Part shown: positions 38,181 to 48,655 of the stretch, one piece after another
Layout: each line of letters begins with the position of its first letter
How positions within the stretch are numbered: position 1 is the first letter of the stretch
IMG/VR virus record: IMGVR_UViG_2534681672_000003
Span: 1 to 56,022 of that record
Reading direction: 5' to 3' (one strand)
Source: a virus
Lineage: Duplodnaviria; Heunggongvirae; Uroviricota; Caudoviricetes
DNA length: 56,022 nt
Made by a program: the position numbers and the translations under genes
Notes under the pieces: generated by a model
What the model was told of the DNA's origin: nothing
The model's input: the letters and a program-made list of their open reading frames with translations, nothing else
The model's database searches: none

Positions 38181-38921
38181 TTACATCATGTCTTTTTCTA
38201 AAAAAAGTCTTGATGAATATTGATGGGGAGGAACACCAAAATATCTTCTGAAAACACTTACAAAATATGACGTGTTTTCATAACCGCATATCTCAGCAAC
38301 TTTTCCAACAGAATATAAATTGTAGCTTAATAACCTTTCCGCCATCACCATTCGCTCTTCAAGAATTAACTTACTAAATGATAAGCCTTCGTGCTTTAAT
38401 TTTCTTTTTAACAGACTTTCACTCAGATACAGTCTTGAAGATATATCACAAAGTCTCCATGCTGCAGATATATCCGTGTGAATAATAGCCTTAACTTTAC
38501 TTCCTAAACTATTAAGACATCCAAATAAAAAACTTTGCACTATTTTCTCTGAAGATAAGATAGCAAGACATGCAAGTGATATTTGATTTCTAACAAAATC
38601 CACAGTTCTGCCATCACAATTCAAGCATGCAATCAAGTTCTTTAACAATGAAAAATCTTCACATTCCACCATCAAGTATGCCGGATAAAACCTTCTTACA
38701 GAAAAAGGTGAGAGTGTGTTGCTTTTAAAGAAATCATTAACTGTTTTCTCTTCAACATCTACGATCATTACATGATCTATATTTGATGAAAAAAAATCTT
38801 TTAAATTGTAATCAATGAGAACAGCACTTCCTTTTTTAAACAAAATATCTTCTTTACCAATTCGGACATCAAACGAGTTCAACACCAAAATGATAGAACA
38901 TATGTATGGCATATTATCCAC
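38181..38921 (-). CDS. AraC-family transcriptional regulator (AT-rich moron between Q and S)
   Basis: C-terminal AraC HTH (VGKVAEICGYENTSYFVSVFRRYFGVPPHQY); low GC. Confidence 0.8.
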   Translation of the reverse strand: MDNMPYICSIILVLNSFDVRIGKEDILFKKGSAVLIDYNLKDFFSSNIDHVMIVDVEEKTVNDFFKSNTLSPFSVRRFYPAYLMVECEDFSLLKNLIACLNCDGRTVDFVRNQISLACLAILSSEKIVQSFLFGCLNSLGSKVKAIIHTDISAAWRLCDISSRLYLSESLLKRKLKHEGLSFSKLILEERMVMAERLLSYNLYSVGKVAEICGYENTSYFVSVFRRYFGVPPHQYSSRLFLEKDMM

Positions 38922-39263
38922 CTGATATCATTGGGGTTACACCAGGTAAGTATAGGTGGAAAATCAATATTCGCCAGTTCAACAATAAGGAAAATCTCAT
39001 TGCATCACAAGTATAAAATTATGTATTTAACTCACAAAGACAAATTATTAAACCAATCTGTTATATTATATATAGCTGCGTGGAATCATAATATTATATA
39101 TTTTGACTGGCATGTTTACCAACTTTAAGTTGCATCTCAATGGTTTCTTCAGCGTAAACAGAGTTTTTATACAAACTGACACTCTGGGTATCATAGTGTA
39201 GTTTTTACGATTGTAAATATCTTGCATGCAGGAACTCATCCTTTTGGATGATATCGCATACAA

Positions 39264-40223
39264 TTAATTTACCATCAGTCTTAGAGCCAGTTCGTCCGGA
39301 TAGGGAGCGAAGTAATTCTGTGTAAGCAAGTAATCATTAGGATACTCACCCAGATAATGCTTCAGCAGAGTCAACGGCGCAAGAAGAGGTAATGTGCCAG
39401 AACGATAGTTAAGTATAACCTCGCTCAACTCTTTACGCTGGCGTGTACTTAAGTAGTTACTAAAATACCCCTGTATATGCATCAGCACATTCGTGTGATT
39501 TTTACGTGATGCAGGTTTTCTGAGAATCGCCATCAGCTTATCACGATACACCTCAAAGTATGATTCAAGGTCCGCCCACTCGTGTATTGCAGCCACAAAT
39601 GGTCCCATATCTTTATAGCCTGCCTGACTATGCGCCAACAACTGAAGCTTATAACGACTATGAAAAGCTAATAACTCTCTTCTTGATAATTTCTCCTTGT
39701 AAAGGTGATTGAGCTCATGCAAAGCAAAAACTCTTTCAACAAAATTCTCACGAAGCACTGGATCATGTAATCGCCCATCCTCTTCAACCGGTAGCCAGGA
39801 AAACTTTTCCATCAAAGTGCTCGTAAATAGTCCCACTCCATCTTTACGACCTCGATTACCATTTTCATCATAGACACGCACGCGCTCCATGCCACAGCTG
39901 GGAGATTTAGCACAAACCACAAACCCCGATACATCCTTTAATTTGTCCATATAAGAACGACTAAACTCTGTCATTCTCTCTGTCACATCCTCATTCTGGT
40001 CGTGGCTGAAACACATCCGTATATTTCCTTGCGTCGAGCGCACAAGACGTAGAGCAGGACGCGGAACTGGCAGCCCTATAGCCATTTCCGGACATACTGG
40101 TCTGAATGTTACCCATTCCACTAATTTGTCCATTAAAAAGTCAGCTCTTTTGTGACCACCATCAAAACGAACAGCAGAGCCGGCCAAACAACCGCTGATT
40201 CCAATCACAGGTTTTTTTATCAT
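39264..40223 (-). CDS. DUF523/DUF1722-type protein (moron)
   Basis: N-terminal VIGISGCLAGSAVRFDGGHK resembles the DUF523 signature as recalled. Confidence 0.5.
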   Translation of the reverse strand: MIKKPVIGISGCLAGSAVRFDGGHKRADFLMDKLVEWVTFRPVCPEMAIGLPVPRPALRLVRSTQGNIRMCFSHDQNEDVTERMTEFSRSYMDKLKDVSGFVVCAKSPSCGMERVRVYDENGNRGRKDGVGLFTSTLMEKFSWLPVEEDGRLHDPVLRENFVERVFALHELNHLYKEKLSRRELLAFHSRYKLQLLAHSQAGYKDMGPFVAAIHEWADLESYFEVYRDKLMAILRKPASRKNHTNVLMHIQGYFSNYLSTRQRKELSEVILNYRSGTLPLLAPLTLLKHYLGEYPNDYLLTQNYFAPYPDELALRLMVN

Positions 40224-40415
40224 ATTCTCCCCCTTGACTAATTCATTAACACATAAACTGTGTAGTGCACGGAATAAATTGCCTTTCTGGCGTCATCACT
40301 GACAATTTTTCTGTTATAGACTATTCCTAATATAGTATGAAAGTTCTTTAAGTGATCGGTCGTAATCATCTATCTTTCATACTTACTCTCAACTATCAAA
40401 AGTACAGGATTTATT

Positions 40416-40940
40416 ATGAAGTTATGGCCTGTGTTGACTGGCATTGCACTCTCTTTCACTCTTATAGCATGTAAGGCCCCGACACCACCTAAAGGTGTGC
40501 AGCCGATTACAAATTTTGACGCCAACCGCTACCTCGGAAAATGGTATGAAATAGCTCGCCTCGAGAACCGGTTCGAACGTGGTCTGGAACAGGTCAGCGC
40601 TACCTATGGAAAACGGAACGACGGAGGGATTCGTGTACTTAACCGTGGATACGATCCAACGAAAAATAAATGGAGCGAGAGCGAAGGTAAAGCATACTTT
40701 ACTGGAGATACTAAAACTGCAGCGTTGAAGGTTTCGTTTTTTGGCCCCTTCTATGGTGGCTATAATGTAATCAAACTGGATGATGAGTATAAGTATGCTC
40801 TTGTCAGTGGTCCGAACAGAGAATACCTATGGATTCTGGCAAGGACCCCAACTATTCCAGATAAAGTAAAAGCAGACTATGTGCGAACCGCTCAAAAGTT
40901 GGGATTCAATGTCAATGAATTATTATGGGTTAAACAATAA
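40416..40940 (+). CDS. blc: outer-membrane lipocalin Blc-like lipoprotein
   Basis: Lipobox LIAC and lipocalin motif NFDANRYLGKWYEIARL. Confidence 0.85.
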   Translation: MKLWPVLTGIALSFTLIACKAPTPPKGVQPITNFDANRYLGKWYEIARLENRFERGLEQVSATYGKRNDGGIRVLNRGYDPTKNKWSESEGKAYFTGDTKTAALKVSFFGPFYGGYNVIKLDDEYKYALVSGPNREYLWILARTPTIPDKVKADYVRTAQKLGFNVNELLWVKQ

Positions 40941-41095
40941 AATCCCTACCCGAAATAATACTTATTAGAAAAAAACCAGCCTTTGGGGAGGCTGGCTAAA
41001 TCAGGAAACAAGCTGTTATATGATAATAACTACGTTGCGATTCCAACATTTAAAATGTTAGACTAATGAGAATCAGACAGCAACTTTTCCTTTAA

Positions 41096-41488
41096 TTATT
41101 TCGAACAATCAGCATCCATCTCCAATCGGAGATCCAACACCATCAGCATACCCTCCACTACGCCCTCAGCTTTCTGGAGCATCCTGCCAACCCAACAATC
41201 AGATCGCCCATGCTTACGTGCAAGCGCCATAAAAGTCATGCCGCCGACATAATAGTCCACCAATAAATCATGCAAATCGCTGTTGTTCTTTTTCAGACGG
41301 GCCATGCACCCGCAAATGATCATCGCGTCATCGTCACAACATTGCGGGCGAGATTTTACTTTTGAAGGAATTAATCCCTTAAAACCGGCGGCAATGGACG
41401 ACCAGGTCACATCTTCATGATTATTAGCCGCCCACGCTCCCCAACGCTCAAGAACCATCTGAATATCACGCATCAACTTACTCCACAA
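41096..41488 (-). CDS. late-gene antiterminator Q (DLP12 QuuD-like)
   Basis: [26 protein letters not shown]... matches QuuD as recalled. Confidence 0.85.
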
Positions 41489-41558
41489 AACTCAGACCAG
41501 AACGCCAATTACAAGCAAAAATCAACAAAACAGTATTAGTTGATTGTTATCTCTGACT

Positions 41559-41699
41559 TCATACTCCTGCTCCTGTCAGTGTTTTGGCGTAATTCTTCAG
41601 TATTCGGTAATCGGTCAAAACAGAGCCGGGGAAACGATATAAGCGCAGACGCCCCCAGCGGTGGCGAAGAAGTTCTGCCATATTAAACTCAAACATCAT
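41559..41699 (-). CDS. ylcG: YlcG-like small protein
   Basis: 46-aa [28 protein letters not shown]... found by hand below the ORF-track cutoff; start overlaps the rusA stop. Confidence 0.7.
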
Positions 41700-42058
41700 T
41701 CATTCCCCATTTCGGTGATGGTCAGTTCCAGCCTCCCACCTTTGGTAACAGGCATCTTCACAACGCGGTAATCAACGACCTGAGCATCATCCAGCCAGAA
41801 ACCTGCTTTAGTGAGTGCGTCAAAAGCGGCTTTTTGCAGATTATCCAGGTCACGGCTACGGCAATCCGGCATGTGGCACTCAATGCGGATTTTCACAGGC
41901 ATAGCCAGGCCGATATCCAGCATTGCGTTTTTAATGATTCGGGCGACGTTATCGCGGTATGCCTGCCCCTCTGCACTGACGTGCGTGCGCCCGCGATTAT
42001 GGCGGTAATAGCGATTATTGCTCGGAGGCCAGGGTAATGTGATACTGTAGGTATTCAC
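41696..42058 (-). CDS. rusA: Holliday-junction resolvase RusA
   Basis: 120 aa, RusA-like. Confidence 0.9.
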
Positions 42059-42345
42059 GCCTTAATAACCCCCTCTTTCAGCCAGATAACCTGTGTTCTC
42101 GCCATACCTTCCAGCGCGCATTCTTTTGCATATGCAGCATCGACAAAATGTGTGCGGCGGTCGATTTCGTCGTGGCAGGCAGAACATGCAATGGTGGCAA
42201 TCAGGTCTGGCGGTTTGATACCGGTACCGCACAATCCAGCCAGCCGGATATGTGCCAGTACAGACGTTTCAGAATTGCCATTACATACGCCAGGGATTCT
42301 TACCTGGCATTCCCGACCACGCGCTGCTTTTCTCAAATCAGCCAT
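42055..42345 (-). CDS. ybcO: YbcO-like (DUF1364) putative nuclease
   Basis: [23 protein letters not shown]... cysteine-rich; trimmed to the internal ATG. Confidence 0.8.
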
Positions 42346-42508
42346 GACTCCTCCTTGCTGCCAGTCGCAACCATTTTTTATCAACCAAGCTGGCGGTATA
42401 TCCGAGCAGTGTTGGTATTTCGGATGGCTTCAGCTCAGGTTTACGCTTACGACGATTTGGTACTCTGTAGATGTGTCCGTTCATGACACGAATAAGCGGT
42501 GTAGCCAT
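42338..42508 (-). CDS. ninE: NinE-like protein
   Basis: 56-aa [30 protein letters not shown]... found by hand; ATGs overlap neighbouring stops on both sides. Confidence 0.65.
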   Translation of the reverse strand: MATPLIRVMNGHIYRVPNRRKRKPELKPSEIPTLLGYTASLVDKKWLRLAARRSHG

Positions 42509-42963
42509 TACGCCTCCTGCTTGTCGCGGAGCAGCTGGAACTCGCAGCTCTGCGGAATAGTCAGGTGGCAGCCAATATTCACCGCCCAGGCTTCAACCTT
42601 ACACAGGAAGACATACATCTCTCCGGTATCAAGATCGGAGGTATGGCGTAACGACTGGATAGTGGTGATATCACCGGTTACGACATCAACCAGGTCTTTG
42701 GTTTCATAACCGAGATATGTGTGTTTGAGAGCATCTTTTACCCAAGCTGGAGTGGCGAACGTTTTACCCTTGCTGATGAGGTATTCACTGATTTCGCTGT
42801 ACCACATGTGGCTGAGTGCATTCTGGGAAAGACTGCGTCTCTCGCGCCACGGTTTAAGCACCATGCGAAAGCATTTGCCGTCCTCCAGATAAGGCTGGAT
42901 CTGCCGACCGATAGCGGTGAAGTTACCGCGATGCAATTTGATACCATCTTGTGGGAGGTTCAC
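42508..42963 (-). CDS. ybcN: YbcN-like protein (NinB position)
   Basis: 151 aa matching DLP12 YbcN as recalled. Confidence 0.85.
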
Positions 42964-43155
42964 GCTTCACCTCCGCAGAGATCAAACGCTGGATGCAAAA
43001 TATCGCAGGTGCATTTCTGCATCTGAGAATGGAGAAGAGAGGTTGGATTGTATGTGCGCATAAACGTCCCCGTTTAGCGCAGAAGTCACCGGAGGAGTTC
43101 AAACTCCGGTGACTTAATTATGGCAAGTTGATTGTTGAAAATCAATTTAGTGGAT

Positions 43156-43938
43156 TTAGGCGCAATACAAAGGATCATTAGCAGCTCTAATACCGCCCTG
43201 AATCGCAAGCCCTGTATGGCAATTTGACATTGAGCATGATTGCCATCTGTGCAAGCGACCTCCATTAATCGAAACTTCCAGCAGATCTTTATCTCCTTTC
43301 ATCCTGACCCCTTCATACAACATATCAAGACGCTCAACAATCAATCCTGTTGGAGGTTCCATTTTTAGAACGAGGGCAAACTCTCCTGGCCCACGTCGTA
43401 TTGTTATACGCGGGCCGGTACACTCCACATCCCAATTGTCTGATTTAGCTTTCCATTCATTTTCATCTATCAGTAAAGTCTCCTTACCAATAGAATTACA
43501 GAAAATTCCTGATAAAAGCATCGGTCCATGTGGTATGGGTGAAGGTTTCACAGAAAGAATGGGTTGTTCATTGACTACAATCAAATTTTGACAGTTATGA
43601 AACGTCACTCCTGCAAATTTTACTGTTATAGGCTCATTATGAAAATCAAACATTTCATTTGCAAAACCAGCCTGTAAGCACTTGGGATTTCTGTCAGCTA
43701 TTTCCACTGTCTGTGCTGAAAGTCTACCACGAGCTCTTTTTTGATTGCATTGGGAGCAAAGAAGTGTCATTCCATTCGGATCATGTACTTTGGCATCAAC
43801 GAAGTCAGGTTTAAAATGCTCATAATCATAAAATCCAAATCCACAAATTACACAGCCAAAGCCGCACCTTTGCCTTATCTGACGTTTTATTGTCTCAGGT
43901 ATTCTTCTTGAGAGCCCGTGTTTATTAATATTGTCCAT
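43156..43938 (-). CDS. HNH-nuclease-domain protein with uncharacterised C-terminal domain (AT-rich moron)
   Basis: N-terminal CGFGCVICG...YDYEHF...LLCSQCNQ HNH/zinc-finger motif; low GC; nin-region island. Confidence 0.6.
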   Translation of the reverse strand: MDNINKHGLSRRIPETIKRQIRQRCGFGCVICGFGFYDYEHFKPDFVDAKVHDPNGMTLLCSQCNQKRARGRLSAQTVEIADRNPKCLQAGFANEMFDFHNEPITVKFAGVTFHNCQNLIVVNEQPILSVKPSPIPHGPMLLSGIFCNSIGKETLLIDENEWKAKSDNWDVECTGPRITIRRGPGEFALVLKMEPPTGLIVERLDMLYEGVRMKGDKDLLEVSINGGRLHRWQSCSMSNCHTGLAIQGGIRAANDPLYCA

Positions 43939-44112
43939 ATGGTTAGTACGCTATAAGTTTGTTTCTATAATTTTACCACAATAGATAAGTTTGTATCAGA
44001 AATCGCTATATGGAGTGAGCGGAATATTTATATTATTCATGCAATTGCTCTCCCGTACGCAGCCCGCACTTCCGTCATCGCAGAATGACGGAAGCCTTAC
44101 TAACTAGCGCCT

Positions 44113-44436
44113 TTATTGAAACAGATTCTGAGGTAAATGCGGCAATACTCGACTCCACTTATCATCCTGCCACGGCTGAAGTTTTACATGTGCCGTTTCT
44201 CGGACGAGGATTGCTCGCGCTCTGTTGAGTATCTGGGGATATTCTTGCTCGATGGAAGTGAAGTGACCAGCTTCACCATGCTCCGCATCCTGAAGAAGAT
44301 GAGTAACGTTCTGGTAGGCAATTAACATCACATTCCCTGCTCGCCATAACCAGGCGAGTGTGCAAAGTTCGTTATCAGTGAATTGTTTTGTGATTGGGGA
44401 TTGTTGAACTGCTAGAACGAGAACGCCAGCATCCAT
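44113..44436 (-). CDS. hypothetical protein
   Basis: 107-aa ORF next to the HNH gene; no family recognised. Confidence 0.35.
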   Translation of the reverse strand: MDAGVLVLAVQQSPITKQFTDNELCTLAWLWRAGNVMLIAYQNVTHLLQDAEHGEAGHFTSIEQEYPQILNRARAILVRETAHVKLQPWQDDKWSRVLPHLPQNLFQ

Positions 44437-44547
44437 TGGCAGTCCCTATAGTAAAATCATAGCTCAGGACGCTTCGTTCAGGATAGATAATTTTATTGTA
44501 CTTACCTAACTTTCTTACTATAGCACGGTTGAAAAAGTGATTATTAC

Positions 44548-46074
44548 TCAAAAATAAACCTCACCATCAACCATATATTTGAGAGTACTTATCGCCTGCT
44601 GGGCGGATATTGTTTTCATTAAAGGATAGTGTTTAAAAACAATGCCATTCATAAAATAGATATCACAGGTTTTATTATCTGTATTGATTATGATTTTTTC
44701 GAATGTTTTATAGGCAAGTGTACGACATAGCTCTCGCCCATTTTTACTGGTTAAGTCAATAGCATGAAAATCACCAAGTGAGCTCACCGCTTTACTCTTC
44801 AAAGTTTTTAATGATACAGAAGCCCTTCGTAATTCCTTATCTAATACTCTGATTTTTTCTGCTATAGCGGTAACTTCAGGCGCAACAGATAATGCAGCAA
44901 TTAAATTATTAATTTTCATCTGAAGCTCAATAATTTTTAACTCTAAAGTTTCATTAGCATCTTTCTTGTTTTCAACTGGTTGAATTTTGCTACAATTAAA
45001 AAGCAATTCATTAATGATATTATAATCAACCAAATCTCTTTTTATTGATGGCCTGTCACATCGATGTAATCTTCTCATCGGACAAACATAATAGCCATGC
45101 AAACTTCCAGATACCGCATGAACAATCATGGTATTACCACAAGCCTCACACTTCATAACTGTTCGAAGTAGATTTATTAGCATAGGATTCTTGCTACTAT
45201 TGCTAATACCAAAAGGTGCCAACCGAATTTCCTGTACAGCGTAAAACAAATCATCTGATATGACTCTGGGATAATAGCCAGCGATTTCACTTATCCCTTT
45301 CCCTCTTGCACGATATGAAGGTACGCATATACCTATCAGAGCTTTATTCGCTAATAATTTTTCAATTACAGAAGGTCCCCATGCACTTTCTTTTCCTGAG
45401 AAATTCTTTACAGCATGATCATTTAAATACTTGGCTATTGCATTCAATGAGCGCCTTTCCATCCTGAGTTTAAAAATTAGCTCAATAGTTTTCACCCTGT
45501 CGGGGTCTGGAACAAAAGCCGTTCTTTTGTCATCCAATGAGAGCCATCTCGGACAAGACGCCGTCATAATCGTACCTGATTCCAGTGCATCCTGCCGTTT
45601 TTTCTTCCATGATAATTTAACCCGACTTGACTTTATCTCGCTTTCTTCATTTGCCCTTTGTGCTATAAGTATGGCTTTTATTAATGAATATGGCTCATTC
45701 AAAGAGTCAATATTATAGACTGTATTGTCGCAAAGAGTTATAACATCAATACCGTGATTCAAAATCAATTTCAGACGTTCAATCGCTTCACCGACTTTTT
45801 CTCTTGAAAGTCTGTCCAGACTTTCAACTAACAATGTAGTTCCTGGCAATATATAACCATGCTCTATAGCATCTAAAAATTCCGAAAAAGCTCCTGATTG
45901 TGCATGCTTTCCTTTGAATGCACTTAATCCTAAATCTTCATATGTTATGGTATCAAGATAATAATCACTATTTACCTTTAACCATTCAGCAATAAGTCTT
46001 CTCTGTCGGTTTAATGAGTCACCAGACATCTGACCTGGTGATGAAAATCGCATATATGCTATGGCTTTTTTCAT
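44548..46074 (-). CDS. large serine recombinase (DLP12 YbcK-like)
   Basis: N-terminal resolvase domain AIAYMRFSSPGQ...SLNRQ, recombinase domain, and zinc ribbon CEACGN...YYVCP. Confidence 0.85.
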   Translation of the reverse strand: MKKAIAYMRFSSPGQMSGDSLNRQRRLIAEWLKVNSDYYLDTITYEDLGLSAFKGKHAQSGAFSEFLDAIEHGYILPGTTLLVESLDRLSREKVGEAIERLKLILNHGIDVITLCDNTVYNIDSLNEPYSLIKAILIAQRANEESEIKSSRVKLSWKKKRQDALESGTIMTASCPRWLSLDDKRTAFVPDPDRVKTIELIFKLRMERRSLNAIAKYLNDHAVKNFSGKESAWGPSVIEKLLANKALIGICVPSYRARGKGISEIAGYYPRVISDDLFYAVQEIRLAPFGISNSSKNPMLINLLRTVMKCEACGNTMIVHAVSGSLHGYYVCPMRRLHRCDRPSIKRDLVDYNIINELLFNCSKIQPVENKKDANETLELKIIELQMKINNLIAALSVAPEVTAIAEKIRVLDKELRRASVSLKTLKSKAVSSLGDFHAIDLTSKNGRELCRTLAYKTFEKIIINTDNKTCDIYFMNGIVFKHYPLMKTISAQQAISTLKYMVDGEVYF

Positions 46075-46328
46075 GGTGACACCTGCTAACGTATGCTTTT
46101 ATAAACCTTAGTGGTGGGATATAATTTTTGTTTAATTTTTATTTAAAAAGACAATTAAGGTCACATTATCTTGAATATACAACAATAATCGTATTGCAAT
46201 TTTCTTACGCCATAATCTTGAAAGCACAAAAGAATACATAAAAAATAAAGACATTAACAAAAAGCATAAAACGAGGCTCATATAAATATAAGAGCCTCCA
46301 TATTTTAGTCGTTTAGAAACAAATTATT

Positions 46329-46661
46329 TTAATGTGGTGTGCTTCGTGACAATAAATTAATAACCAACACACCGGCACAAATCAACATCATGCCTATAAT
46401 GGCTGGCAGGTCCAGCCGTTGGCCGAAAAGTCCCCATGACAGTAAGCTAATCAGGACAATACCGACTCCTGACCAGATAGCATAAGCAATCCCTGTAGGA
46501 ATATAAGCCAGCGTCTGAGCTAATAACCAGAATGATGCACAATAACAAATAATTGTACCAACAGATGGCCATAACCGTGTAAAACCTTCTGAAAACTTCA
46601 TTAAGGTTGTACCAATGACCTCTGCAAGTATTGCACCACCAAGATAAATATAAGGGTTCAT
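46329..46661 (-). CDS. emrE: small multidrug resistance efflux protein EmrE
   Basis: MNPYIYLGGAILAEVIGTTLMKFSEGF... matches EmrE; trimmed to the internal ATG. Confidence 0.92.
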   Translation of the reverse strand: MNPYIYLGGAILAEVIGTTLMKFSEGFTRLWPSVGTIICYCASFWLLAQTLAYIPTGIAYAIWSGVGIVLISLLSWGLFGQRLDLPAIIGMMLICAGVLVINLLSRSTPH

Positions 46662-46728
46662 AGCATATTCTTTCCTGTTCAAACTGGAGAGAATTGTACT
46701 ACAGTTTGAACTCAACTCACCTGTTTCA

Positions 46729-47031
46729 TCATTGTGTACCCATTGATGTTCTTTTATATACCCTCAATACCCGTTTCATCGCGGCACTCTGGCGACACTC
46801 CTTAAAAATCAGATTCGTGCTCACCTTTCCTTCCCGTTCTTCTCTGGTAGCGAACCGGTAATACACCGTTCGCCAGACCTTACCATCAACGACCAGGATT
46901 CCTGCCCGCGCCATTTTAGCCGCAGCCTGATTTATGCTGGTTACGGTTGCGCCTGTTACCGCGGCAACGTCCTGCGCACAGAAGTTCTTATGAGTCCCCA
47001 GGTAATGAATAATTGCCTCTTTGCCCGTCAT
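46729..47031 (-). CDS. ren: Ren (Rex exclusion escape)
   Basis: MTGKEAIIHYLGTH... matches lambda Ren. Confidence 0.9.
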   Translation of the reverse strand: MTGKEAIIHYLGTHKNFCAQDVAAVTGATVTSINQAAAKMARAGILVVDGKVWRTVYYRFATREEREGKVSTNLIFKECRQSAAMKRVLRVYKRTSMGTQ

Positions 47032-47729
47032 ACACTTGCTCCTTTAAGCCCAAACTTAGCTTTGATTTCTGCGATCTTCGCCAGAGCCTGTGCACGATTT
47101 AGAGGTCTACCGCCCATGACAGGAAGTTGTTTTACTGGTTCAGGTATAGCCTCACCACGGTTAATTCGCGCTGTCATACAGGTCAGTTCATCGGCAGCCT
47201 TGCGCCGTAATTCCGCGTCAGTCAGCGCATTGGCTCGCATGTTCTGGTACAGGTTGGTAACCAGCCAGTAGTGCGCGTTCGATTTCCATGGATAAGACTC
47301 TGCGTCCGGATACAGGCCACGCTTCCGGCAATACTCGTAAACCATATCAACCAGCTCGCTGGCGTTTGGCAGCCCGGCGGTAATGGATGCTTCTTCCCGG
47401 CACCAGGCGACAAACTGCCCGGGTGATGGCAGGAATGGTCGATTCTGCCGACGGGCTACGCGCATTCCTGCGTTAACCTGTTCCATTGTGGTGATCCCGT
47501 TTTCCCGGAAAGCCAGCACCCACTGGCGGCGGATTTCGTTCAGTTCGTTCTGGTCCCGGTTAGCCAGGCTCGCCGGGAAAGTTGCTAGTAACTGGCTGAA
47601 CACACCATTGATGATCTGCGCTACCTGTTGTACCTGCGGCTTTTCGTCGTACTGTTCCGGCATGTTGTTGGCGATCCGACGCATCTGCTCACGGTCAAAG
47701 TTAACCATCTGTGCGGCGATGTTTTTCAT
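47028..47729 (-). CDS. P: replication protein P (DnaB loader)
   Basis: 233 aa, lambda P-like. Confidence 0.95.
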   Translation of the reverse strand: MKNIAAQMVNFDREQMRRIANNMPEQYDEKPQVQQVAQIINGVFSQLLATFPASLANRDQNELNEIRRQWVLAFRENGITTMEQVNAGMRVARRQNRPFLPSPGQFVAWCREEASITAGLPNASELVDMVYEYCRKRGLYPDAESYPWKSNAHYWLVTNLYQNMRANALTDAELRRKAADELTCMTARINRGEAIPEPVKQLPVMGGRPLNRAQALAKIAEIKAKFGLKGASV

Positions 47730-48655
47730 AGCTCCACCCCGTAAATCCAGTCAGTGTTCGTCAGGTCGAGTTTTGGTTTGCTGGCTATCACGCCTGCCTG
47801 TTGCTTGTTACGGTTGATTTCGAGTTGGGTCCACTTATCGCGGAGTTTGGCCGGGCTCAGCACGTTACCGGACCAGAAGTTGTCCTGGCATGCCCAGCGG
47901 AACAGCACGCACATGTCGCGGTGGTTACGTCCGTCACGTTCACGCATCAGGCGGATATCGTTAGCCCACCCAGCAAAATTCGGTTTTCTGGCTGATGGTG
48001 CGATAGTCTTCACCATGTCAAACATCCACTCTGCGGCGGTCAGGTCTTCTGCTGTCCCCCACTTGCTGCCGCTCTGAATTGCAGCATCCGGTTTCACCAC
48101 AGGAAGATCGTTTTCTGGCTGGTCAGAGGATTCGCCAGAATTCTCGGACGAAAAAGGTTTTATATTGTCTTTTGTTAGTTTGTCTTTTGTGTTTACCTGA
48201 TTCGGGTAAACGCCTTTACCTGATTTGGGTAAACTTTTCTTACCTGATTCAGGTAAATTTACCTCTTTCAGGTAAACTTTATTTTTCTTACCTGATTCGG
48301 GTAATGTTGACCATTCACTGACCACATTATTAATGCCGATATTCCGCCCGCTCTGAATAAGAATCCCACGCTTTACCAGAACGCTTTTTGCAGCAGAACA
48401 CTTGTGCGGCAATATCCCGGTCAATTCGGAAAGTTGCTCGTTGCTCACCCAATCCAGTCTTTTATTAAAGCCATATGTTTTGCGCATGACAGCCAGAAAG
48501 ACCAGAAGCTGGTGCTGTGTTAATCCGGTCAGCATCACAGCTTCCAGCAACTCATTTGCAATGCGCGTATAACCATCATCGAGATCTGCCACGCGCGGCT
48601 CCTTTTGTGCCGCATCCGGCACTGGAAAATTGAATATCTCAGCAGTGTTTGCCAT
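47726..48655 (-). CDS. O: replication initiator O (lambda-type fold with its own N-terminal iteron-binding specificity)
   Basis: Homology to lambda O begins at MANTAEIFNF after a GGGAGG RBS; the ORF track offers a longer version from 48745. Confidence 0.8.
   Translation of the reverse strand: MANTAEIFNFPVPDAAQKEPRVADLDDGYTRIANELLEAVMLTGLTQHQLLVFLAVMRKTYGFNKRLDWVSNEQLSELTGILPHKCSAAKSVLVKRGILIQSGRNIGINNVVSEWSTLPESGKKNKVYLKEVNLPESGKKSLPKSGKGVYPNQVNTKDKLTKDNIKPFSSENSGESSDQPENDLPVVKPDAAIQSGSKWGTAEDLTAAEWMFDMVKTIAPSARKPNFAGWANDIRLMRERDGRNHRDMCVLFRWACQDNFWSGNVLSPAKLRDKWTQLEINRNKQQAGVIASKPKLDLTNTDWIYGVEL
48192..48305. repeat. ori iterons inside O: 5 copies of about 19 bp TTACCTGAttCgGGTAAAC (each an inverted repeat), with AT-rich tract at 48140-48190
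   Basis: Regular spacing; architecture parallels lambda ori within O. Confidence 0.75.

Follow-up and report, generated by a model that had tools for sequence, protein, structure and literature searches.

The window analysed here, a 56,022-nucleotide stretch of a Caudoviricetes record (IMGVR_UViG_2534681672_000003), encodes an HNH-domain protein, hereafter HNH-X, which on balance is probably, if only modestly so, a self-contained, single-gene anti-phage (anti-invader) candidate nuclease that a DLP12-type lambdoid prophage harbours as a moron in its variable ren/P-to-ninB slot. A nuclease-type anti-phage effector had been suggested in an initial annotation of this DNA; the sites at which relatives of HNH-X are found make it a credible candidate, and it is from this location that we infer the defence role itself.

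Organisation of the ren/P-to-ybcN slot

An ORF check of the window confirmed all of the ORF positions given in the initial annotation (Table 1). The window is 100% identical to the corresponding sequence of E. coli SCU-102, in which ybcK, ylcJ, emrE and ybcN are annotated, and this annotation together with Pfam bears out that emrE and a YbcK-like recombinase lie in the ybcN-ren interval. A 128-aa emrE ORF reaching up to 46715 corresponds to a TTG extension of the annotated gene. The statement that ybcL and ybcM occupy this slot in K-12 was likewise correct, as MG1655 has ybcL-ybcM-ylcH between ybcK and ybcN. Downstream of the slot, Pfam identifies NinB, YbcO, RusA and Q. No match to an Rfam non-coding RNA was obtained at E ≤ 0.1 in positions 41000–48000.

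Table 1. Features of the slot and its borders (positions in the window).
Feature	Coordinates	Strand	Evidence
ren-like gene, backbone, opens the slot	46729-47031	-	ORF, SCU-102 annotation
emrE, SMR efflux pump, 110 aa from annotated start	46329-46661	-	Pfam Multi_Drug_Res 4.8e-35, annotation
ylcJ, small ORF	46132-46281	-	Annotation of identical SCU-102 sequence and of K-12
ybcK, predicted large serine recombinase, 508 aa	44548-46074	-	Pfam, phrog_95 integrase
107-aa ORF, P22AR_C only	44113-44436	-	Pfam P22_AR_C 1.1e-13
AT-rich intergenic region 5' of HNH-X	43939-44112	-	Promoter scan, hairpin folding
HNH-X, 260 aa, RefSeq WP_001366525.1 'hypothetical protein'	43156-43938	-	ORF, phrog_6544
HNH (His-Me finger) domain of HNH-X, N-terminal, residues 1-85	43684-43938	-	Basic, median family pI 8.9
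Predicted all-beta C-terminal domain of HNH-X, residues 86-260	43159-43683	-	Acidic, median pI 5.0, net charge -6
Conserved downstream slot border: promoter-like site and hairpin, ahead of ylcH/ybcN	43083-43138	-	Four-way DNA alignment
ylcH-like 33-aa ORF, backbone	42960-43061	-	Annotation of SCU-102 and K-12
ybcN (NinB-like), backbone, closes the slot	42508-42963	-	ORF, Pfam, annotation

The slot had also been described as low in GC. The dip is genuine but consists of two AT-rich stretches rather than a single block: GC is 31–41% across ybcK-emrE and 37–42% across the HNH-X gene, compared with 50–57% in the flanks, and the 107-aa ORF located between both stretches resembles the backbone (~47%).

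The content of the slot varies among E. coli prophages. Alternatives to HNH-X include ybcL-ybcM, an alpha/beta hydrolase, a SIR2 protein (matching the PADLOC SIR2 / PDC-S65 models), a HEPN pair, DUF4041, DUF4145, a 169-aa protein of unknown function, or no cargo at all. A four-way DNA alignment of slot variants reveals that homology stops ~35 nt past the ybcK stop codon, with whole cassettes swapped between conserved borders, as opposed to the precise gain or loss of one gene. The downstream border, common to all slot variants, contains a promoter-like site (TTGATT-17-CATAAT) and a hairpin at 43083–43115 with a 12-bp stem (-20.4 kcal/mol, z -4.9); none of 200 shuffled sequences was as stable. 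Both its foreign GC content and the presence of alternative cargos between conserved borders characterise HNH-X as a prophage moron. The suggestion of a variable defence or moron hotspot holds as regards variability and frequent defence-type cargo. The arrangement is akin to the P2 old/tin and P4 hotspots and to lambdoid morons (PMC9122126), where defence cargo is swapped at a variable position flanked by conserved phage genes; the HNH-X slot differs from the P2/P4 hotspots in being lambdoid (ren/P to ylcH-ybcN). No description of this lambdoid slot as a defence hotspot was found in the literature searched, and lambdoid phages are credited only with 'sporadic HNH nuclease genes' in PMC12315714.

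The adjacent 107-aa reading frame

HNH-X and the 107-aa ORF had been proposed to form a two-gene cassette; in such a cassette the P22AR_C protein would serve as regulator, antitoxin or trigger adaptor. The two genes lie side by side in the same orientation, both in the window and in each of the 80 E. coli carriers of HNH-X. However, Pfam detects only P22AR_C in the 107-aa ORF, with Bro-N absent, and the ORF aligns with residues 101–197 (78% identity) of a 202-aa Bro-N+P22AR_C protein from O103 strain RM8385. It is found in ten times more E. coli genomes than HNH-X (839 versus 80), ~760 of which have it without HNH-X and beside other cargos, and it is a pseudogene in the O104:H4 and Res13 strains. 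This alignment identifies the 107-aa ORF as what is left of a Bro-N/P22AR_C (Ant/Bro-like) gene truncated at its 5' end, probably a dead or incidental relic. Furthermore, a P22AR_C gene does not accompany HNH-X homologues of other genera in any non-E. coli context inspected, and in the window the two genes are separated by 175 bp and a strong hairpin. The cassette is therefore very improbable, and we rejected the 107-aa ORF as a partner of HNH-X.

The separating hairpin (44068–44095) is situated just 3' of the 107-aa ORF (-20.7 kcal/mol, z -2.5) and, like the border hairpin on the other side of HNH-X, is devoid of a T-run. A promoter scan located a promoter-like site with an extended -10 at 43999–43970, upstream of HNH-X. 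This constitutes weak evidence for a dedicated promoter, since such sites are no more frequent in the HNH-X upstream region than in shuffled sequences.

Domain architecture of HNH-X

The N-terminal HNH/zinc-finger motif recognised in the initial annotation is genuine: the pattern CxxC...EH...CxxCN is invariant in 31 homologues and the predicted fold fits HNH structures. The invariant positions comprise E40-H41 (an acidic-preceded catalytic His), N65 (distal metal ligand) and C29/C32/C61/C64 (a structural Cys4 zinc site), and the predicted HNH-X fold contains the beta-beta-alpha-metal arrangement by which the HNH / His-Me finger superfamily is defined. A sister subfamily displays the canonical CDQHH form. 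Profile searches, which had been recommended for both uncharacterised proteins, classified the 107-aa ORF as P22_AR_C, and for HNH-X returned phrog_6544 (unknown function, E 1.8e-141) and a sub-threshold match to Pfam HNH PF01844 (14.5 bits, cut-off 21.4); family member P0172 exceeds this cut-off with 25.0 bits. For HNH-X, no Pfam model scored above its gathering threshold, and NCBIfam and PADLOC gave no match below E 0.01. A PDB sequence search with HNH-X alone yielded nothing, and with a profile only a spurious match to HIV gp160.

The C-terminal domain displays no similarity to SRA, PUA, NEco, SAVED or any solved fold, and Pfam revealed neither NUMOD nor AP2 nor any further DNA-binding module in HNH-X. 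Some relatives possess variable added tails, such as TPR or CxxCxxCC, a feature typical of modular conflict proteins. Taken together, alignment and structure prediction show HNH-X to have a predicted zinc-stabilised HNH fold in which all catalytic and metal-binding positions are conserved, fused to a conserved, acidic and apparently beta-rich domain.

Distribution and genomic contexts of the family

The HNH-X family comprises 1,496 clusters at 50% identity, spans at least 8 bacterial phyla (with members in Streptomyces, cyanobacteria and Planctomycetes) and one archaeal MAG, and provides >300 homologues with 50–79% identity to HNH-X. Within E. coli it is rare, occurring in 80 of 5,426 genomes as near-identical copies (>99.6% identity), compared with thousands of genomes for the backbone nin genes. 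Among 50,697 phage records only one, a temperate Klebsiella phage, contains a family member, and virulent phages contain none; a further 71 IMG/VR contigs and 7 plasmids do. The dN values of 0.14–0.33, combined with saturated dS, point to purifying selection on HNH-X, indicating this in a qualitative sense and not as dN/dS ratios. The family is absent from PADLOC-DB 2023 (11 diverse members tested) and was not found in the portion of the DefensePredictor tables covered here. No paper on the family was identified in the literature, nor any match for WP_001366525, and neither PMC13069673 nor PMC13586616 mentions HNH.

HNH-X homologues are solitary in 10 of 10 contexts read. An all-against-all BLASTP comparison of 1,687 flanking ORFs covered 80 loci, each from a different species, and no neighbour family recurred at over five of them; a small Zn_ribbon_8 ORF is located 3' of the homologue at only five distant loci. 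In V. cholerae L016, the homologue is a single-gene integron cassette between attC-like (VCR-like) repeats, and a member of the sister subfamily similarly forms a single-gene cassette within the attC array of V. hibernica L105. The homologue in a Pseudomonas prophage is encoded on the strand opposite to all its neighbours. In a Buttiauxella P2-like prophage the homologue has gpA as its immediate neighbour on one side and the portal gene on the other, and in a P. luteola P2-like element it adjoins the portal gene. Both occupy the P2 defence hotspot, as gpA-gpQ has been defined as such by Rousset et al. 2022 (PMC9122126). An Alcaligenes homologue is found beside a McrA-like type IV enzyme (PADLOC 3.5e-7) and DUF4238, whose role in defence was validated in PMC9122126. 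Other homologues follow replication genes in Enterobacter and Klebsiella prophages, or are placed at a prophage end beside int or lysis genes. PADLOC models (among them mREase_IV 1e-80, HEC-05, Cas6, MADS, AbiJ, GajB and HerA/IetA) match ~10% of the 145 nearest neighbours, a raw, uncontrolled share. These contexts show that the family resides only on host-resident mobile elements, repeatedly where defence genes collect.

Proposed function and alternative explanations

We propose that the HNH domain of HNH-X would cut DNA, while the acidic C-terminal domain would not read it. Instead, the C-terminal domain could respond to a signal of infection, such as a phage protein or some different ligand, and/or restrain the basic nuclease domain as long as the cell is uninfected; once activated, HNH-X might destroy either the invading DNA or that of the cell itself (abortive infection). 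The proposed sensor/autoinhibitor role draws on charge, conservation and analogy, the model being the sensor-plus-HNH logic of Cap5, the HNH-SAVED effector of CBASS, and of other defence proteins built in this way. It is possible, although we place the chances somewhat below even, that HNH-X is the first member of a widespread and previously undescribed family of immune nucleases consisting of one protein, that its C-terminal domain is a new sensor/autoinhibitor gating the HNH domain, and that the lambdoid slot is a hotspot comparable to those of P2/P4. HNH-X is co-oriented with the early-right operon, and hence may be expressed mainly in lytic growth.

Other roles can be envisaged for an HNH protein in this position. 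HNH-X could be a modification-dependent (type IV) restriction endonuclease, in which the beta-rich domain would recognise base modifications of phage DNA and the HNH domain would cut. The model for such an enzyme is McrA, encoded in K-12 by the lambdoid prophage e14. In HNH-X, however, similarity to type IV enzymes is confined to the HNH domain (60–79 aligned residues), the two domains come in the opposite order, and the second one is unrelated to known modified-base readers and has an acidity unusual in a DNA reader, which makes this assignment unlikely. We consider it quite unlikely that HNH-X instead benefits the phage, whether as a recombination, replication-restart or structure-specific nuclease (cf. 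NinG/Rap, RusA, YbcO) or as a lytic host-takeover or counter-defence nuclease. This would agree with its location among NinB, YbcO and RusA in the nin region and its orientation, with the homologues that follow replication genes in Enterobacter and Klebsiella, and with BFVD structure matches that include proteins named NinG (probability 0.97–0.98, but E ~0.15). It is at odds with homologues in integron cassettes, P2 gpA-gpQ, positions by int or lysis genes, plasmids, Streptomyces, cyanobacteria and Planctomycetes, where no phage recombination role is expected, as well as with the low frequency of HNH-X relative to backbone nin genes, its foreign GC content and the near-absence of the family from sequenced phages.

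Near-identical copies with presence/absence polymorphism at one slot, as seen in the 80 E. coli genomes, could also arise from an HNH homing endonuclease encoded on its own, or from some other wholly selfish nuclease that spreads by cutting empty sites. Yet the insertion sites differ wholly between hosts, a DNA-binding module of the kind sought is missing and the C-terminal domain is acidic, virulent phages, which are rich in HNH homing genes, lack the family, and the E. coli slot exchanges entire cassettes. Strong cross-phylum conservation with saturated dS argues for a function at the level of the host or element. A homing enzyme is accordingly considered extremely improbable.

If the preferred reading of HNH-X as an immune nuclease is true, it would represent a compact, very widespread one-gene nuclease defence with a sensor domain of unrecognised fold. 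Its C-terminal domain would then lend itself to structural studies and to the search for a trigger, and the lambdoid ren/P-to-ninB slot would be worth mining, as the P2/P4 hotspots and integron cassettes were. If the prediction fails, HNH-X is an ordinary prophage moron without assigned function. Given that the gene is small and solitary and has an obvious catalytic mutant (H41A), the proposal is cheap to test.

Against a defence reading stands the presence of true recombination nucleases of phages (RusA, YbcO, NinG-type) in the nin region as well.

Comparison with known systems

HNH-X was not assigned to any of the established HNH systems considered. A CBASS Cap5 effector would have an adjacent CD-NTase, and HNH-X has neither a conserved neighbour nor SAVED similarity in its C-terminal domain. 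The PADLOC model of Septu PtuB matches only with E 0.031 (12.2 bits), and the ATPase partner, PtuA, is missing. In McrA-type enzymes (EcoKMcrA of prophage e14, TagI, ScoMcrA) the HNH domain is C-terminal and the modified-DNA reader N-terminal, the reverse of HNH-X, and an SRA, PUA or NEco reader is lacking in its acidic second domain, which makes a McrA-like identity unlikely.

The closest precedent in concept is DS-7 ('SVIR', WP_225403053.1), which the DefensePredictor screen (PMC13092281) describes as a validated single-gene E. coli defence. Like HNH-X, it combines an N-terminal HNH domain (Cap5-like in DS-7) with a beta-rich C-terminal domain; according to that report, DS-7 is longer (368 aa versus 260 aa) and its C-terminal domain is DUF2634, phage baseplate gp34-like, which that of HNH-X is not. 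Homology between the two was rejected (hhalign probability 0.4%, E 0.15). Sirona and Nemetona are single-gene HNH-like defences of the V. cholerae N16961 chromosomal integron, with Sirona homologues in 34 genera of Pseudomonadota, as stated in Darracq et al. (bioRxiv 10.1101/2024.07.02.601686). Compared by description only, they are His-Me finger (HNH)-related single-gene cassettes, as are the V. cholerae and V. hibernica members of the HNH-X family; the same paper likens them to a type II REase domain and to NinG (PF05766), with which HNH-X gives no Pfam signal at E ≤ 0.1. The V. cholerae HNH-X-family members are present on so few contigs that they cannot be the proteins of N16961 (7th-pandemic).

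The ybcK-emrE module

The N-terminus of YbcK contains the catalytic motif YMRFSSPGQ, as read from the translation, and Pfam detects Resolvase (7.7e-19), Recombinase (2.3e-14) and Zn_ribbon_recom (8.2e-8) domains; by these signatures, it is an intact large serine recombinase. A search for inverted repeats that it could invert, as initially suggested, produced no convincing inverted repeats, invertible segment or att site within 40–50 kb of the window, where only short, imperfect inverted repeats (16–28 nt, 71–88% complementary) are present. The ybcK/emrE pair is cargo separate from HNH-X, and the emrE-ylcJ-ybcK module is also found in the free lambdoid phages Turner, Perceval, 4A7, 1W and 3W.

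Gene order and exchangeable cargo of the slot

The window covers part of an E. coli chromosome and carries a DLP12-type lambdoid prophage. Strain SCU-102 matches 42900-46800 at 100% identity, and 81 of 5,426 complete E. coli genomes carry this stretch in full. The relevant genes are all on the minus strand, with an early-right transcription order of O, P, ren, emrE, ylcJ, ybcK, the 107-aa ORF, the 260-aa ORF (HNH-X, WP_001366525.1), ylcH, ybcN/ninB, ninE, ybcO, rusA, ylcG and Q. The gene map confirms the initial annotation, which placed emrE and ybcK between ybcN and ren together with both ORFs, and its placing of ybcL-ybcM in K-12 was correct (MG1655 reads ybcL-ybcM-ylcH-ybcN after ybcK). The reported low GC is a real dip, but one of two separate parts: the HNH-X gene (37-42%) and ybcK-emrE (31-41%) lie on either side of the 107-aa ORF, which is backbone-like at ~47%, with flanks at 50-57%. 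As genes, K-12 comparison and GC dip check out, the observation itself stands.

Features of the window with coordinates
Feature	Position	Strand	Remark
ren	46729-47031	-	
emrE	46329-46661	-	
ybcK	44548-46074	-	
107-aa ORF	44113-44436	-	
HNH-X, 260-aa ORF	43156-43938	-	
Conserved hairpin	43083-43115		12-bp stem; -20.4 kcal/mol, z -4.9
Lipocalin	40416-40940	+	
YbgA-family protein	39264-40223	-	
HTH protein	~38181-38912	-	

Four variants of the slot, the variable interval from ren/P to ylcH-ybcN, were aligned (window, O157 F6667, O104:H4 2011C-3493 and K-12). All have the ybcK 3' end and ~35 nt in common (to ~44515), and homology returns at ~43138 with a promoter-like element and the conserved hairpin upstream of ylcH/ybcN. 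The interval between these borders is empty in some genomes; others have ybcL-ybcM, an alpha/beta hydrolase, or the 107-aa ORF together with a second cargo, which is HNH-X in the window. In prophages without emrE-ybcK, cargo occupies the entire ren/P-to-ybcN interval: SIR2 (PADLOC SIR2 and PDC-S65 models, down to 4.8e-63), DUF4041, DUF4145, YajG lipoprotein, TagO, or the ordinary methyltransferase-ninB arrangement. The exchange of alternative, often defence-type cargos between shared borders hence supports the suggestion of a variable defence or moron hotspot; no description of the lambdoid slot as a defence hotspot was found in the literature searched. HNH-X is present in 80 of the 5,426 genomes, with identity >99.6% throughout.

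In the 2011 outbreak strain O104:H4 2011C-3493, the second cargo is a 169-aa protein (L028 2958-3467) with no match in Pfam or PADLOC; emrE and ybcK are truncated in this strain, and its P22AR_C ORF has an internal stop. The O103 RM8385 counterpart (L029 3986-4782) is an overlapping pair of a HEPN protein (PADLOC PDC-M28A, 1.8e-7) and a 133-aa protein, which looks like a small HEPN two-gene system.

The 107-aa ORF and the ybcK recombinase

P22AR_C is the only Pfam domain of the 107-aa ORF. A 202-aa Bro-N + P22AR_C protein, encoded at the matching position in O103 RM8385, aligns with it over residues 101-197 at 78% identity. The ORF is therefore what remains of a Bro/Ant-type gene, its 3' half, after loss of the 5' half at the emrE-ybcK module junction. 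With 839 E. coli genomes carrying it, the ORF is ten times as common as HNH-X, and elsewhere it neighbours unrelated cargos. Decay is apparent from the internal stop in O104:H4 and from frameshifts in strain Res13, and no P22AR_C gene was found beside HNH-X homologues of other genera. Its role as HNH-X partner was rejected on these grounds, and the proposed two-gene cassette dissolves into HNH-X and a remnant mostly found without it. A gap of 175 bp and a hairpin of -20.7 kcal/mol separate the two ORFs.

The three domains of a large serine recombinase are all present in ybcK, as is the catalytic YxRxSSxxQ motif. The emrE-ylcJ-ybcK group travels together in thousands of E. coli genomes, and is also found in the free lambdoid phages Turner, Perceval, 4A7, 1W and 3W. 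A search of 40-50 kb of the window for inverted repeats flanking a segment that the recombinase could invert, as had been envisaged, gave at best repeats of 16-28 nt with 71-88% complementarity, and there is thus no sign of an invertible segment. The only hint to the ybcK substrate is that slot-variant homology ends ~35 nt past its stop codon, but prophages without ybcK show the same cargo exchange.

Just past the ybcK stop (44440-44525), a 9-nt inverted pair, CTATAGTAA ... TTACTATAG, ~60 nt apart, brackets the point of homology loss between slot variants; too short for more, it hints at a candidate recombination site. Many strains without the prophage module have a second, solitary emrE copy, ~92% identical, at an unrelated site in the chromosome (H137-H147).

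HNH-X defines a widespread two-domain family

Profile searches named the 107-aa ORF and left HNH-X without a name in sequence libraries. Pfam gave a sub-threshold HNH match only (14.5 bits versus a cut-off of 21.4), NCBIfam none, and PADLOC solely PtuB (E 0.031); the PHROGs assignment is phrog_6544, 'unknown function'. No PDB chain was sequence-related by single sequence or profile. More than 300 close homologues (245-265 aa, 50-79% identity) were found in Enterobacter, Klebsiella, Citrobacter, Serratia, Hafnia, Burkholderia, Comamonas, Alcaligenes, Pseudomonas and Vibrio. Residues C29, C32, E40, H41, H52, C61, C64 and N65 are invariant in a 31-homologue alignment; they make up an 'EH ... N' His-Me finger enclosed by a Cys4 zinc site, which bears out the N-terminal HNH/zinc-finger motif noted initially. 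The HNH domain is conserved, and this predicted nuclease is probably active.

A profile of the C-terminal beta-rich domain (C-domain) only, searched against 1.84 billion cluster representatives, matched 1,496 clusters at E<=1e-3, of which 767 reached E<=1e-10. Of the best 150 full-length matches, almost all have the domain starting at ~residue 85-90, which makes HNH + beta-domain a fixed architecture, with extra C-terminal tails in some members (e.g. TPR, CxxCxxCC). A scan with one genome per species gave 150 relatives, the best 80 of which span Gamma-, Beta-, Alpha- and Deltaproteobacteria, Cyanobacteria, Bacteroidota, Chloroflexota, Planctomycetota, Verrucomicrobiota, Actinomycetota, Saccharibacteria and Nitrospirota, and include one Methanophagales MAG. 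Comparison with relatives at 61-79% identity gave dN of 0.14-0.33 with saturated synonymous sites, and HNH-X is therefore under purifying selection.

A sister subfamily (~285 aa, 29% identity over full length) has HNH and the same beta domain. It is >70% identical across Vibrio, Photobacterium, Shewanella, Colwellia, Acinetobacter, Pseudomonas and Proteus, and such identity across many gammaproteobacterial genera suggests recent horizontal spread. Public records often label it 'cell division protein', or else 'trigger factor' (P0293, P0296, P0317, P0336, P0359 and others), which looks like propagated misannotation.

HNH-X genes are solitary and reside on mobile elements

The HNH-X gene is solitary, on host-resident mobile elements. 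Among 50,697 phage records a single temperate phage carries it, as do 7 plasmids and 71 contigs of IMG/VR. In Enterobacter it lies right behind replication gene P of Rac-like prophages, and in Klebsiella in the nin-equivalent region of prophages, phage ST846-OXA48phi9.2 included; in a Pseudomonas prophage its strand is opposite to all neighbours, and in Comamonas it immediately precedes int. In a Buttiauxella P2-like prophage it directly adjoins gpA on one side and portal and terminase genes on the other, while in a P. luteola P2-like element it adjoins the portal gene, behind a RelE/XRE pair. The gpA-gpQ interval is the P2 defence hotspot defined by Rousset et al. (PMC9122126). At an Alcaligenes prophage end (L018 7001-10338), HNH-X is followed by an McrA-like type IV HNH enzyme (PADLOC mREase_IV, 3.5e-7) and a DUF4238 protein; a lone DUF4238 protein was validated as defence in the same study (PMC9122126). 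In V. cholerae (L016 1-2161), a family member is a single-gene cassette flanked by VCR-like repeats, and in V. hibernica (L105 3000-10000) a sister-subfamily gene is a single-gene cassette inside an attC array. One-gene defences have been demonstrated to be abundant in chromosomal integron cassettes (bioRxiv 10.1101/2024.07.02.601686).

Comparison of the 1,687 ORFs that lie up to 2.5 kb from the gene across 80 species gave no neighbour family common to >5 loci, and Pfam revealed no dominant family. About one in ten of 145 nearest neighbours match a PADLOC model at E<=1e-5, a figure without matched control; the matches comprise mREase_IV (1e-80), HEC-05, Cas6, MADS, AbiJ, GajB, HerA/IetA and PDC families.

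The three defence-type genes of L018 lie in a row, with tail-fibre and lysis genes on one side and the prophage border on the other, and ~428-nt cassettes surround the V. hibernica gene. Five distant members (L064, L065, L070, L083 and L088, in delta-proteobacterial, Nitrospira, Verrucomicrobiota, Smithellaceae and other proteobacterial MAGs) have a 118-137-aa Zn_ribbon_8 protein downstream on the same strand, which may be a lineage-specific partner.

Proposed function and relation to known systems

Besides its HNH domain, HNH-X has an acidic, beta-rich domain that is conserved; the gene is autonomous, under purifying selection and located where defence genes collect. We lean towards a defence role, in which HNH-X would act as a one-gene anti-phage nuclease. 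With less confidence, the C-domain may sense infection and/or restrain the nuclease, by analogy with SAVED in the CBASS effector Cap5. A type IV restriction enzyme is unlikely, given that the second domain is acidic and unrecognisable. A nin-region nuclease of benefit to the phage appears slightly less likely again; its placement in nin regions is offset by the integron, P2-hotspot and non-phage contexts. Joint action with the truncated 107-aa ORF is highly improbable, and a homing endonuclease is scarcely credible.

The anti-phage nuclease reading would make HNH-X one of a known kind, as prophage-borne single-protein nuclease defence is established. The validated defence protein DS-7 (WP_225403053.1; PMC13092281) has the same pairing, a Cap5-like HNH and a beta-rich domain, but is not homologous. 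The family is not in PADLOC-DB 2023, Pfam has no C-domain model, and no description was found in the literature searched; of 11 diverse members, only P0172 matched PADLOC-DB 2023 at E<=0.01, marginally, to the generic 'Effector endonuclease' (E 0.0059). Darracq et al. named Sirona and Nemetona, HNH-like single-gene cassette defences, with Sirona present in 34 genera (bioRxiv 10.1101/2024.07.02.601686). Their described NinG/type II similarity gave no Pfam signal in HNH-X at E<=0.1. V. cholerae members of the HNH-X family lie outside the pandemic lineage, unlike the Sirona/Nemetona source. HNH-X may still be a Sirona relative, and would then be a new member of an already known family.

Other features of the window

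A second accessory slot (38181-40940), AT-rich at 31-35% GC, lies between Q (41096-41488) and the lysis genes and holds the lipocalin, YbgA-family and HTH genes; the corresponding position is occupied by the nmpC porin in K-12 and by ompC in other strains. Within the O-type replication gene, four to five direct repeats of ~20 nt (48188-48306), TTTACCTGATTCGGGTAAAC-like, are ordinary lambdoid origin iterons.
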